Origin: a virus
Lineage: Duplodnaviria > Heunggongvirae > Uroviricota > Caudoviricetes
Direction: 5' to 3' (one strand)
DNA: 54,083 nt
IMG/VR virus record: IMGVR_UViG_2534682338_000012
Location: 1-54,083 of that record
Made by a program: the position numbers and the translations under genes. This document shows, piece by piece, positions 36,912 to 38,926 of this stretch (position 1 is its first letter; every line of letters begins with the position of its first letter). The notes under the pieces are model-generated. The model saw nothing but the letters and a program-made list of their open reading frames with translations. It ran no database searches and was not told the origin of the DNA.

Positions 36912-37466
36912 ATGCTTATTGGCTATGTACGTGTGTCAACAAATGACCAGAACACAGATCTACAACGTAATGCGCTGAACTGTGCAGGATGCGAGCTGAT
37001 TTTTGAAGACAAGATAAGCGGTACAAAGTCCGAAAGGCCGGGACTGAAAAAACTGCTCAGGACATTATCGGCAGGTGATACGCTGGTGGTCTGGAAACTG
37101 GACCGACTGGGGCGCAGTATGCGGCATCTTGTCGTGCTGGTGGAGGAGTTGCGCGAACGAGGCATCAACTTTCGTAGTCTGACGGATTCAATTGATACCA
37201 GTACCCCAATGGGGCGCTTTTTCTTTCATGTGATGGGTGCCCTGGCTGAAATGGAGCGTGAACTGATTGTTGAAAGAACAAAAGCTGGACTGGAAGCTGC
37301 TCGCGCACAGGGACGAATTGGTGGACGTCGTCCCAAACTTGCACCAGAACAATGGGCGCAGGCCGGGCGATTAATTGCATCAGGCGTTCCTCGCCAGAAG
37401 GTGGCGATCATCTATGATGTTGGTATATCGACACTGTATAAGAAGTTTCCGGTCGGAGATAAATGA
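36912..37466 (+). CDS. pin: serine DNA invertase (Pin/Gin/Hin family)
   Basis: MLIGYVRVSTNDQNTDLQ... catalytic Ser in YVRVST, C-terminal HTH; immediately right of invertible segment. Confidence 0.9.
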   Translation: MLIGYVRVSTNDQNTDLQRNALNCAGCELIFEDKISGTKSERPGLKKLLRTLSAGDTLVVWKLDRLGRSMRHLVVLVEELRERGINFRSLTDSIDTSTPMGRFFFHVMGALAEMERELIVERTKAGLEAARAQGRIGGRRPKLAPEQWAQAGRLIASGVPRQKVAIIYDVGISTLYKKFPVGDK

Positions 37467-37572
37467 AACCGTAGCACGTCGTATGCAAGAAGATCGTGCT
37501 GCGGTTTATGCTTATCACTTAAAGACTCAAAAATTAGGTGAGTAACGGACCGGGGACATAGCTCCTTTTTTC

Positions 37573-38298
37573 TTAATTCATCTGGTATTTTTTTCCAAGA
37601 TAAAGATTTGCTATTTCAGGTGGGGCTTCTCGACCTTCAAAACCATAGCGAGAACTTTGTGTTGCCTCAAAGTCCGGATCCTCGTCCCAGTATTTCATCG
37701 TAGGGAAATTTTCACGTGTTGATTTGAGCCATTTATCAGCAATGAAAACCCCTCGAACGATCCCCCTTACAGTAGCAAGAATGACTTCTGCTTGGCTGGC
37801 GCGAGAGACATTAATGCGCCAGCTAAATCGAACCGCATCATAAAGCTCTGAATCCTTTGCACTTCTGTTAACGGAAATCATTAATGCTTTATGATGAAAT
37901 GTTATGGTTTCGGGTTGATATGTTGCTATCAACTCTTTGACATGCGCGGCGCCGAATTCATTGCTGCCAGCACCATTCATGATATTCGTTAACCCAGGGT
38001 AGGCATCAATAAGTGCTGCTTCAACTTCGTACGCCGTCTTTTCATCAGTCATTCCATGTCGATGGATGACATGGATAACTTCAAGTCCCGCTAATCTTAT
38101 TTCTCTGATTTGCTTTAGCTTGTTGCTCAGTAACTCGTCATCATCAGCCGCTGCCACTTCACCGCGCATATGGGCAAATACGCGGTTACCTTTGCCTTTC
38201 CCTACATAGAAGGTGCTTCCGTCCCTAGGATCAATCAATCGGTATACATACCAGCCAAGGTGTTCAATTACTCCAGAAGGAAACTCAGTAATATCCAT
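37573..38298 (-). CDS. GIY-YIG nuclease-superfamily protein
   Basis: N-terminal [23 protein letters not shown] matches the GIY...YIG motif pair; start taken at MDITEF (track start is TTG); flanked by ~40-bp hairpin repeats. Confidence 0.6.
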
Positions 38299-38926
38299 TT
38301 TGCAATATCTGTGAATTATTTGTGAGACGTATATTAATGAACATTGCAAGGGCTCACAACTAGTAGTGTTGAGAAAGCCATCGGGAAAATGAGGCTAACC
38401 CTTTGAATTTACATAGCGCAAAAAGATACCTTTCCTCATAATGTGAGCTAATTTTATGTTTCGTTTGATGATCGGGTCGGTCTCGAAACCCGTAGCCACG
38501 TCATATGCAAGAACGTGCTACGACTGGCTGGTGAACTTCCGATAGTGCGAGTATTGAATGATTTCCAACTGTTATCGATTTTGCGTATTTTTAGCATGAG
38601 AGGATTCGCACCACCTCCCACCGACCATCTATGACAGTATGCCACTATCTATAGGACTGCTTTGTGCCAGCAGCGGACGGTATGTTTGTTAATTGGCGGA
38701 TTTTCTTGAGTAAATCAATAGGATAGGTGAAAAATTAATCAAAAGTTTATGGCCCTACTACCCATCAAACTGATAGAGCCTCTCCCTGGATGGACGACAA
38801 AATCAGATATTGGAAAGTCAATAATTAATACAAGCACCAACATTTCTTGAAAAGGTTATTTATAAAATGAAATAATTTTTAGCCATGTTATAGTGATGTA
38901 TTAACTTCAGATAAAGAGATTATAGG

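Follow-up and report, generated by a model that had tools for sequence, protein, structure and literature searches.

A PD-T4-3 restriction gene set between two copies of a stem-loop that recurs at the late-operon ends of coliphages

The closest described relative of the locus examined here is PD-T4-3, also called CMoRE, which was first discovered by functional selection in ECOR68 (PMC12923530). PD-T4-3/CMoRE targets T-even phages, whose 5hmC or glucosyl-hmC DNA it cuts. Recognition of 5-hydroxymethyl- or glucosyl-hydroxymethyl-cytosine falls to its C-terminal domain; once two modified sites have been read by a tetramer, the N-terminal GIYxY-YIG domain, normally under an acidic lid loop, cleaves T-even DNA (PMC12923530). 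Cleavage of 5hmC/5ghmC DNA and restriction of T-even phages are both experimental results for proteins 88-99% identical to the one described below (PMC12923530, PMC12409345). The characterised proteins from O157:H7 and APEC O1 (PDB 9U75 and 9U7U) belong to the same family, are near-identical in sequence and form a single-gene system; in O157:H7, the gene likewise stands directly after pinE and one hairpin. A positional counterpart is McrA of e14 in K-12, which lies at the same place, between pinE and attR of an e14-type prophage. Like PD-T4-3, McrA is prophage cargo and a modification-dependent (type IV) restriction enzyme; it acts as an HNH nuclease against methylated or hydroxymethylated cytosine. 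Its sequence is unrelated to that of PD-T4-3, and its gene shares a strand with pinE, behind which e14 has no hairpin element.

Lambdoid morons are extra genes found at fixed genome points as independent transcription units (PMC3594210). The prophage anti-sRNA genes of Tree et al. are located at the pR' moron site, unlike the element described here, which lies at the late-operon end. Short 'boundary' or 'linker' sequences, conserved at module junctions and recurring in otherwise unrelated lambdoid phages, are attributed to Juhala et al. (2000) in PMC4104026; our hairpin element resembles them, standing in HK97 directly before sib/tI and attP. P2-like phages and P4 satellites carry defence hotspots (Rousset et al. 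2022, as cited in bioRxiv 10.1101/2024.10.15.618418). The slot studied here is likewise a fixed position in temperate phages, beside tail-fibre or invertase genes, that holds interchangeable defence systems: PD-T4-3 and a PD-T4-6-like kinase in our case, and elsewhere Septu with PDC-S15, a SIR2 protein, PD-T7-1 or a gene annotated 'restriction endonuclease', with cargo in both orientations. Unlike the P2/P4 hotspots, it belongs to e14/SfV-like and lambdoid lineages, and its edge is a non-coding stem-loop rather than conserved genes.

The stretch of DNA that we analysed (the window, 54,083 nucleotides) contains a prophage integrated at thrW and spanning positions 1399-41856. Its attL (1399-1445) lies inside a tRNA-Thr(CGT) gene (1369-1444), its integrase gene is encoded on the minus strand at 1459-2622 (Phage_integrase, E = 3.5e-48), and its attR (plus strand, 41810-41856) is an exact 47-bp direct repeat of the 3' part of thrW. 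The repeat shared by attL and attR starts in the anticodon loop, and the chromosome resumes to the right of attR with a LysR fragment and paoD. The region of interest is the right-end cargo slot of this e14/SfV-like prophage, whose head is of HK97 type and whose contractile tail is of Mu type. The late/tail-fibre module ends with the gene pinE (plus strand, 36912-37466), encoding a Hin/Gin/Pin-family serine DNA invertase (Pfam Resolvase, 1.8e-51; HTH_7, 1.5e-12); PGAP gives the name 'pinE' to its equivalent in strain M8. The pix crossover sites at 34975-35000 and 36831-36856 flank the invertible tail-fibre segment. Beyond the nuclease gene, the slot holds a 478-aa Ser/Thr protein kinase (plus strand, 38927-40363; Pfam Pkinase, 4.6e-21) and a 205-aa protein (plus strand, 40720-41337) that had no match in Pfam, PADLOC, NCBIfam or PHROGs. 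The kinase gene is present in only 3 of 5,426 genomes. Its product matches the PADLOC models mad6 (5.8e-25) and PD-T4-6 (2.7e-24) in the kinase domain only, and is a candidate defence protein.

A first-pass annotation of this DNA had proposed a GIY-YIG nuclease gene on the minus strand at 37573-38298, and this proposal held. The open reading frame (241 aa, ATG start) matches Pfam PF22945, the LEM-3-like GIY-YIG family, with an E-value of 2e-14 (54 bits against a cut-off of 27). The PADLOC PD-T4-3 model PDLC04031 covers residues 1-237 of 241 (E = 1.1e-128), and phrog_5356 matches with E = 6e-133. Alignment to PDB 9U75 (E = 9e-159) revealed 3 substitutions in 238 aligned residues, or ~99% identity, and identity to PDB 9U7U is ~88%. 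The N-terminal motif G15-W-Y17-V-Y19...F30-Y31-V-G33 corresponds to GIYxY-YIG, including the third tyrosine (Y17, Y19 and Y31); the acidic autoinhibitory loop reads A50 A D D D E55 L L (D52-E55), and the sequence also has Y127 and, at the interface, V92 and L96. The positions of Y17, Y19, Y31, D52-E55 and Y127 agree with the residue numbering of PMC12923530. The predicted product is the type IV restriction endonuclease PD-T4-3/CMoRE, already characterised, and the gene adds nothing new, as the structure and mechanism of this defence nuclease appeared in print in 2026.

The annotation had left two roles open, defence nuclease and homing endonuclease, and the full-length PD-T4-3 match upholds the former. 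Could the gene be a self-inserted, homing-endonuclease-like selfish element, with the repeats as its duplicated target or boundary? The GIY-YIG domain is common to phage homing endonucleases (I-TevI, Seg proteins), a PHROG annotated 'homing endonuclease' matches weakly (E = 0.003), and single-repeat empty sites exist. We nevertheless consider this origin very improbable, as the match to PD-T4-3/CMoRE extends over the whole length, including the C-terminal domain that binds 5hmC, the substrate of PD-T4-3/CMoRE is modified phage DNA, and Pfam matches the GIY-YIG domain only, with nothing in the C-terminal half. Moreover, PD-T4-3 is carried by 822 of 5,426 complete E. coli genomes at 95-100% sequence conservation, and every locus examined is the tail-fibre/invertase end of an e14-like prophage. 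The gene occupies an intergenic cargo slot, not its own target within a phage gene, and most loci are without the right-hand repeat.

The copy of PD-T4-3 in the window is probably damaged. A length of 257 aa is found in 24 of 25 complete ORF copies (viral contigs and strain M8) and in the crystallised protein, against 241 aa here, ending in ...GKKYQMN, with the last 19 residues replaced by YQMN. One base is missing from each of two tracts, at ~37587, where A8 has become A7, and at ~37565; the original 3' end (minus strand, 37527-37572), with the ancestral stop codon at 37527-37529, is now out of frame. Residues up to 238, including Y127, align with 9U75. General homopolymer sequencing noise, a possible cause of the frameshift, is not supported: the window and strain M8 differ by only 8 indels in 24 kb, two of which fall in the 3' end of PD-T4-3, and homopolymer indels number only 3 in the same 24 kb. 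Because the last 19 residues are missing, the activity of this copy is not assured. The window further differs from O157:H7, beyond the frameshift in the A8 tract, in its thrW prophage, its second hairpin with further cargo, and its lack of a serU attR.

The annotation had also described two palindromic repeats of ~40 nt around the gene. Related copies are indeed present at 37466-37507 (copy 1) and 38485-38525 (copy 2), but the hairpin of copy 2 is degraded, and the ~40-nt repeat there is the 5' part of a ~100-nt element (38485-38584) whose left flank is tRNA-Ser-like. The best local alignment of the two copies, across GAAACCGTAGCACGTCGTATGCAAGAAGATCGTGCTGCG and GAAACCCGTAGCCACGTCATATGCAAGAACGTGCTACG, contains 34 identities, 2 mismatches and three indels (1+1+3 nt). 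Its score is 43, followed by 30 for a palindromic copy against its own reverse complement, and unrelated places in the 54-kb window, with both strands covered, score no higher than 27. In the whole window, a profile of 37 copies taken from elsewhere matched only two places, 37464-37506 (E = 1e-11) and 38485-38584 (E = 1.3e-29).

Copy 1 sits between the convergent genes pinE (plus strand) and PD-T4-3 (minus strand). The pinE stop codon (37464-37466) overlaps the base of the hairpin, which lies 19 nt past the ancestral PD-T4-3 stop codon. Its 13-bp stem (AAACCGTAGCACG / CGTGCTGCGGTTT) encloses a 16-nt loop, TCGTATGCAAGAAGAT, with a 3-nt insertion. Folding energies are -22.5 kcal/mol on the plus strand (z = -4.7) and -16.3 kcal/mol on the minus strand (z = -3.3). 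Copy 1 consists of the hairpin alone, as homology to the canonical element stops directly after the stem. Its stem is rich in G+C, a partial U-tract is present on each strand (GGUUUAUGCUUAU and GGUUUCAUUUAUCU), and copy 1 is probably a bidirectional terminator for the pinE and PD-T4-3 transcripts. A consensus terminator scan of 37200-39000 called no terminator; copy 1 was not called because its loop is too long for the scan's rule. A promoter scan found no minus-strand promoter, and promoter-like sites were no commoner than in shuffled sequences. Copy 2 is the complete 'late-operon-end' element. Its hairpin (~38486-38523, loop TCATATGCAAGAA) folds at -13.3 kcal/mol (z = -1.5), and 14 of 200 shuffles fold equally well. 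A second helix, imperfect here, pairs GGCTGG (38526-38531) with CCAACT (38565-38570) and is followed by ...CGATTTTGC.

We then compared this element across coliphages. In HK97, Stx and e14-like prophages, the stem-loop is found behind the last of the late genes (an invertase or tail-fibre gene); its stem of 12-13 bp covaries, and its loop consensus is YCGUAUGCAAGAR. It is usually the first helix of the ~100-nt two-helix element, after which the cargo, or attP and int, begins. Copy 2 matches HK97 (20942-21038), HK106 and Stx phages. The full element was found in 2,996 of 5,426 complete E. coli genomes, at up to 7 places per genome, and more than 200 viral contigs bear it behind invertase, tail-fibre-assembly or other genes. 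Thousands of prophages that lack PD-T4-3 have the hairpin at the late-operon end. Judged by these matches, the two hairpins in the window are copies of a general stem-loop placed after the last late gene in many coliphages, not cassette ends. The annotation's suggestion of a discrete inserted cassette is not supported in the sense of a mobile unit with the hairpins as its ends, since the hairpins are a common late-operon-end stem-loop; the two-hairpin form of the PD-T4-3 locus occurs in only ~98 genomes, compared with 822 that carry the gene.

Compensatory changes were observed in both helices of the element, with 88% of cells paired compared with at most 56% for slid partners, and the covariation score was matched by 0 of 500 shuffles. 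In a set of copies not selected on the hairpin, the pair types were GC 38/AT 27, CG 73/TA 14 and GC 71/AT 18 in helix 1 and GC 67/AT 22 in helix 2, and the loop core was 80-99% conserved. Such a conserved loop suggests a specific partner, which a plain terminator would not need, and intrinsic terminators usually have shorter loops than its 13-16 nt. The 5' flank of canonical copies is A-rich, equivalent to a U-tract on the minus strand, and they lack a U-tract on the plus strand. The cues to the active strand conflict: mismatches in helix 1 are G.U on the minus strand in 32 cells compared with 8 on the plus strand, favouring the minus strand, whereas copy 1 folds better on the plus strand. Lambdoid siphoviruses and e14-like myoviruses both have the element at the end of their late operon.

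A peptide-coding reading of the element was rejected because neither the frame nor the length of the mini-ORF is conserved, and the indels and compensatory changes fit a structure instead. PGAP begins a 'capsid protein' pseudogene at an ATG inside the loop. At gathering thresholds, Rfam returned only tRNA-Thr for the whole window; for the HK97 copy at an E-value threshold, it returned only a partial match to the CssrB hairpin. The 3'-terminal stem-loop of the CssrB consensus (RF02799, a Shigella sRNA) corresponds to the element's hairpin. We rejected membership, as the HK97 copy scores 29.1 bits against a gathering score of 76, over the terminal hairpin only; the remaining ~130 nt of the model are absent, and the element is therefore not a CssrB member. 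Our literature search found no description of the stem-loop or the ~100-nt element, and the loop sequence used as a search word gave no match. The hairpin element thus appears to be uncharacterised. It is followed in the window by a second conserved non-coding block ('class D', plus strand, 38585-38690) with a sharp end at ...GTGCCAnnAGCGGAC. The 19 distinct copies of class D lead into ~13 different downstream sequences, so that cargo differs between prophages past the block, and most E. coli matches to 36800-39000 stop at 38675-38692.

Next, we compared occupied and empty sites. Most PD-T4-3 loci, including that of O157:H7, have copy 1 only and end in a serU attR; eleven one-hairpin occupied loci with a serU attR were examined, O157 Xuzhou21 among them. 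The upstream (promoter/5') region of PD-T4-3 (minus strand, 38299-38468) accompanies the gene in all contexts examined, and serU-type loci and O157:H7 are homologous to the window from the pin gene across this region up to ~38495. In one locus (L209), the left hairpin still accompanies the gene behind a different upstream sequence, made up of a tfa remnant and an acyltransferase gene. The position of PD-T4-3 is a variable cargo position, and there are related prophages without the gene at the same place. The annotation had pointed to such relatives as the place where a single repeat might mark the empty site, and four of them (L067, L048, L077 and L033) have one hairpin each. The flanks of L067 agree exactly with those in the window, over 60 nt on the left side of copy 1 and over 55 nt on the right side of copy 2. 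From these alignments, the direction of change could have been either insertion into an L067-like site or deletion between two hairpins.

The left flank of copy 2 carries a relic of a serU-type phage attachment-site arm (plus strand, 38469-38495). Its sequence, TGATCGGGTCGGTCTCGAAACCCGTAG, matches nt 19-46 of tRNA-Ser(CGA) at 22 of 27 positions in an alignment to K-12 serU, and is joined to copy 2 within GAAACC, between GAAA and CC, in the anticodon-loop part of the relic. In L010, L087 and O157 Xuzhou21, the same flanking phage sequence leads into serU nt 19-90 and then into the chromosome downstream of serU, forming attR. This flank bears on the possibility that the hairpins arose by local duplication, as a long target-site duplication or by replication slippage, during a transposition-like insertion of the gene. 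In its favour, the hairpins are direct repeats around ~1 kb, and their spacing is constant at 1022-1024 bp in three sequences. However, the serU-like rather than pin-like flank of copy 2 already contradicts duplication; the copies also differ in structure, copy 1 being a hairpin only and copy 2 a full element with a different right arm, and neither a transposase nor terminal inverted repeats are present. We regard duplication as hardly credible.

The same junction raises the question of whether the hairpin is itself a recombination site, at which cargo is swapped as cassettes by a site-specific recombinase, with the two copies as true cassette boundaries. Candidate recombinases would be a tRNA-targeting phage integrase acting at a secondary site, Pin acting at a pseudo-site, or an integron-attC-like single-strand mechanism. 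Many different cargos start at fixed positions right after the hairpin, helix 2 or class D, the loop is conserved as expected of a protein-recognised site, and the copy-2 junction and the start of the thrW att repeat both fall in an anticodon loop. In addition, the left half-site of pixL recurs in the serU arm as TCTCGAAAACC, but this 11-mer identity is within chance for the window (0.84 matches expected), and real pix half-sites are 2 bp apart, not 30 nt. Neither an integron integrase nor a cassette array was found, the recombinases identified beside the region being only the thrW integrase and Pin. Breakpoints lie at several positions in or after the hairpin rather than at a single crossover point, most PD-T4-3 loci have one hairpin only, and the reciprocal junction, in which the pin end would lead into the 3' part of serU, had no match in viral contigs. 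Overall, a dedicated recombination site seems unlikely. Two specific candidates were rejected separately. For an integron gene cassette, there are only two hairpins in 54 kb, the thrW integrase and Pin are the recombinases beside the region, and cargo occurs in both orientations; for a Hin/Gin/Pin crossover site, in which a 2-bp core parts two inverted 12-bp half-sites (..AAACC), the hairpin arms end in AAACC/GGTTT but lie ~30 nt apart.

We favour, with a probability of about 80%, a reading in which a known PD-T4-3 cargo gene sits at the end of a thrW prophage, the hairpins are the general late-operon-end stem-loop, and the bracketing results from module swapping. The commonest arrangement among the loci examined, taken as the older one, runs from pin through one hairpin and PD-T4-3 to attP(serU), as in O157:H7. 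In the lineage of the window, a right-end module of pin and PD-T4-3 would have been joined to the hairpin element of a thrW-integrating phage, which would have brought its own cargo (the kinase and the hypothetical gene). The join lies in the short shared string GAAA(A)CCG. Its possible origins are recombination through microhomology and the action of an integrase at a secondary site, with tandem prophages collapsing afterwards. Since modules would have been joined at a conserved element, the two-hairpin bracketing would be a by-product of module swapping. Modular recombination in a prophage hotspot for defence cargo is its most likely source. More tentatively, the element could be a structured non-coding site new to the literature, recognised as RNA or as DNA, that goes beyond a passive terminator by insulating late genes from cargo transcription and by serving as the preferred crossover point for defence-gene exchange among unrelated temperate phages, a role that we regard as possible but doubtful.

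These findings describe a very common prophage element, apparently without annotation so far, at the point where late genes give way to interchangeable defence cargo. The element also accounts for a recurrent spurious 'capsid protein' pseudogene annotation. The presence of a serU relic within a thrW prophage clearly records an exchange of modules between phages with different integration sites. Searches for new defence genes in e14-like and lambdoid prophages can use the boundary set by the element as an aid in defining the cargo slots.

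The stretch is part of the E. coli chromosome with an integrated prophage. A tyrosine integrase gene (1459-2622, minus strand) adjoins thrW, the tRNA-Thr(CGT) gene (1369-1444), and an exact 47-bp repeat beginning in the thrW anticodon loop forms attL (1399-1445) and attR (41810-41856), with 40.5 kb of prophage between them. The prophage appears complete, from int through to the tail fibres and cargo. The annotation of the near-identical locus in strain M8 lists an HK97-type head module, a Mu-type contractile tail, an invertible tail-fibre segment and the Pin-family invertase gene pinE, and past the right end it returns to chromosomal genes (a LysR fragment and paoD). 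We focused on the final 4.3 kb of the prophage, from the pinE stop codon (37464-37466) to attR.

A minus-strand GIY-YIG gene in this region had been proposed to be either a homing endonuclease or a defence nuclease. The ORF is present at 37573-38298, with a domain match to PF22945 (E=2e-14). The PADLOC model for PD-T4-3 covers the whole protein (E=1.1e-128), and two solved structures were matched: 9U75 from E. coli O157:H7, which differs by 3 substitutions over 238 aligned residues, and 9U7U from APEC O1. Both structures were published together with the renaming of PD-T4-3 to CMoRE (PMC12923530). That paper describes a tetramer with an N-terminal 'GIYxY-YIG' nuclease domain (Y17, Y19 and Y31), an acidic loop of 15 residues lying over the active site, where it prevents self-damage, and a 5hmC-binding C-terminal domain with a main-chain contact at Y127. 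The window's protein has all the residues named there. In its native host, PD-T4-3 was independently shown to act against Tevenvirinae (PMC12409345). Judged by its sequence, the gene is the known defence nuclease PD-T4-3/CMoRE, already characterised in detail; the defence option was right, and the homing endonuclease option is wrong, as the protein matches PD-T4-3/CMoRE along its whole length.

The window's copy carries a 3' frameshift. Among the complete PD-T4-3 ORFs in the loci fetched by that stage (viral contigs and strain M8), 24 of 25 encode a 257-aa product, the length also of the crystallised protein. In the window, an A8 tract is reduced to A7 at ~37587 and a second A/T homopolymer tract is one base short at ~37565; because both tracts are short, the ORF ends early, giving a 241-aa product that ends in ...GKKYQMN. 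General homopolymer noise is not an obvious explanation, because the window differs from M8 by just 8 indels in 24 kb, two of which are these shortenings. The first shortening is also carried by the viral contig L108, so frameshifts may recur at the A8 tract.

Two related repeats do flank the gene; 34 positions of their alignment are identical, with 2 mismatches and three small indels. This alignment scored 43, followed at 30 by the palindromic copy aligned with its own reverse complement; unrelated places in the window reached at most 27, on both strands. Searching the 54 kb with a profile built from element copies in other phages returned exactly two places, copy 1 (E=1e-11) and copy 2 (E=1e-29). 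Copy 1 (37466-37507) folds into a strong hairpin (-22.5 kcal/mol, z=-4.7) that stands alone, with cargo beginning directly past its stem, whereas copy 2 folds poorly (z=-1.5) and is the beginning of a ~100-nt sequence (38485-38584). Hairpin 1 probably ends both convergent transcripts, as suggested by its position 0 nt past the pinE stop codon and 19 nt past the ancestral PD-T4-3 stop codon (37527-37529), partial U-tracts on both strands, and fold energies of -22.5 and -16.3 kcal/mol on the two strands.

The ~100-nt sequence matches unannotated DNA downstream of tail-fibre genes in HK97 (20942-21038), HK106 and many Stx phages. It was matched in 2,996 of 5,426 complete E. coli genomes, at up to seven places per genome, and more than 200 loci with the element were collected from viral contigs by two scans combined, one anchored on the hairpin loop and the other on the interior of helix 2, which avoids selecting on the hairpin. 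The element sits past the stop codon of varied 'last' genes, including Pin-type invertase genes, tail-fibre-assembly genes and the HK97 side-fibre gene; both copies in the window are paralogues of this general late-operon-end element. Helix 1 has the form (A)AACCGCAGC-CACG / CGTG-CTGCGGTT(T) with the loop UCGUAUGCAAGAA, and helix 2 is GGCUGG...CCAGCC. Compensatory changes occur in both: among 37 distinct copies, 88% of cells were paired versus at most 56% with partners slid, and the observed covariation score was reached by none of 500 shuffles. In 97 distinct copies unselected on the hairpin, pair types were GC 38/AT 27, CG 73/TA 14 and GC 71/AT 18 in helix 1 and GC 67/AT 22 for one pair of helix 2, while the loop core GUAUGCAAGA was conserved at 80-99%, with a minority of copies carrying an unrelated loop.

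No Rfam family matched the element at threshold. The sole echo was the terminal hairpin of CssrB, in HK97 (L036, 3598-3662), at 29 bits versus 76 and well below threshold. CssrB, an Rfam family for a Shigella sRNA, ends in the element's hairpin, which suggests that experiments in Shigella have detected at least one transcript with its 3' end there. PGAP places a partial 'capsid protein' pseudogene here, beginning at an ATG in the hairpin loop, at 38505-38591 in the window and at the same place in many RefSeq genomes; this annotation looks spurious, because the mini-ORF varies in frame and length among copies. The canonical element has an A-rich 5' flank, and helix 1 mismatches would form G.U pairs in 32 cells on the minus strand versus 8 on the plus strand. 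These features suggest that canonical helix 1 acts on leftward transcripts from the cargo or int region, in which case the element would insulate the late genes. A simple terminator would not account for the long conserved loop.

We examined what lies downstream of the element. HK97 has, directly after it, what we take to be the sib/tI hairpin and attP, and other phages have a minus-strand gene, an integrase gene or cargo. Directly past the element, the viral contigs L077, L035 and L070 carry Septu (PtuA/PtuB) with PDC-S15, a 936-aa SIR2 (ThsA-like) protein, or PD-T7-1, with Septu in L077 and SIR2 in L035. Neighbouring ORFs of 215, 334 and 415 aa in this set had no PADLOC match and could be candidate unknown defence genes. 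In the window and its relatives, the element is followed by a second conserved non-coding block, class D (38585-38690), found in ~177 E. coli genomes at megablast level. This block ends sharply at ...GTGCCAnnAGCGGAC, where ~13 different downstream sequences start, among them a kinase gene in the window, an annotated 'restriction endonuclease' gene in strain 30EVA1, also at thrW, and the Septu and SIR2 genes; the block may contain a promoter or recombination site. The window's Ser/Thr kinase (478 aa, 38927-40363) has an N-terminal kinase domain matching PADLOC mad6 and PD-T4-6 at ~1e-24 and an unassigned C-terminal half, and a 205-aa protein (40720-41337) has no family match. Present in 3 of 5,426 complete E. 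coli genomes, this pair is a candidate two-gene defence cargo. Given such varied defence cargo past the same element, the region is therefore a defence-cargo hotspot, similar in logic to P2 hotspots and to morons (PMC3594210). The e14 prophage of K-12 has mcrA, another type IV enzyme, at the same place past pinE.

The first-pass annotation had suggested that the repeats belong to a discrete inserted cassette, as boundary sequences or regulatory hairpins. Single-hairpin sites without the gene were indeed found in related prophages: L067 is identical to the window over 60 nt before copy 1 and 55 nt past the copy 2 loop, and in L048, L077 and L033 pin is followed by a single hairpin, the element and then the class D block. 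One-hairpin occupied sites exist as well. The PD-T4-3 interior occurs in 822 genomes and the form including copy 2 in ~98, so that most carriers have the left hairpin only. Upstream of PD-T4-3, ten viral contigs and O157:H7 Xuzhou21 read ...TTTGATGAT(C/T)GG(G/A)(T/C)CGGTCTCGAAAACCGGAGTAGGGG...CTCTCCGCCA, which corresponds to serU (tRNA-Ser CGA) nt 19-90 and then the K-12 serU downstream flank; this is an attR in serU, and the second hairpin is absent. The window keeps the same phage sequence up to ...GGTCTCGAAA and then enters the hairpin with CCCGTAGCCACG..., and 22 positions of its 27 nt at 38469-38495 agree with serU nt 19-46. The left flank of copy 2 is therefore what remains of a serU-type attP arm in a thrW-using prophage, copy 2 being the full element joined to it. 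A second junction type runs to ...GAAAACCGTAGGCACGTAGTATGC and then a minus-strand gene (L011, L034, L070, L079, L104 and L120), and a third diverges earlier, at 38451 (L074 and L098). Strain CFIAFB20190172 (L209, 2347-3945), with the same thrW locus and kinase cargo, has a tail-fibre-assembly remnant and an acyltransferase gene in place of pinE; the hairpin before PD-T4-3 is retained with the variant loop TTGTATGCAATAA, as is the PD-T4-3 3' flank. The predominance of left-hairpin-only carriers argues against the hairpins as cassette boundaries. Module exchange within a prophage cargo hotspot most likely produced the bracketing, which does not mark a mobile cassette; the original observation was correct and its interpretation partly right.

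The older arrangement was probably pin, hairpin, PD-T4-3 and attP(serU). This module would have become fused to the hairpin element carried by a thrW phage that already had its own cargo. The fusion would lie in GAAA(A)CCG, a string common to both sides, which in serU forms the 3' part of the anticodon loop and stem. Its position is compatible with an integrase acting at a secondary site and tandem related prophages then collapsing; the thrW attL/attR repeat likewise begins in the anticodon loop. Microhomology-mediated joining is equally compatible. A search of viral contigs did not find the reciprocal junction. At pixL, a Pin crossover site, the left half-site TCTCGAAAACC (34975-34985) is identical to serU nt 30-40 in the tRNA-Ser(CGA) anticodon arm, a match within chance expectation for the window, and a single base separates it from the serU relic beside hairpin 2 (38481-38491). 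The serU attP arm could nevertheless serve as a pseudo-site for the Pin invertase.

The mildly interesting remainder of the finding is the stem-loop element itself, a very abundant, covarying and apparently undescribed structure that delimits late genes from cargo.
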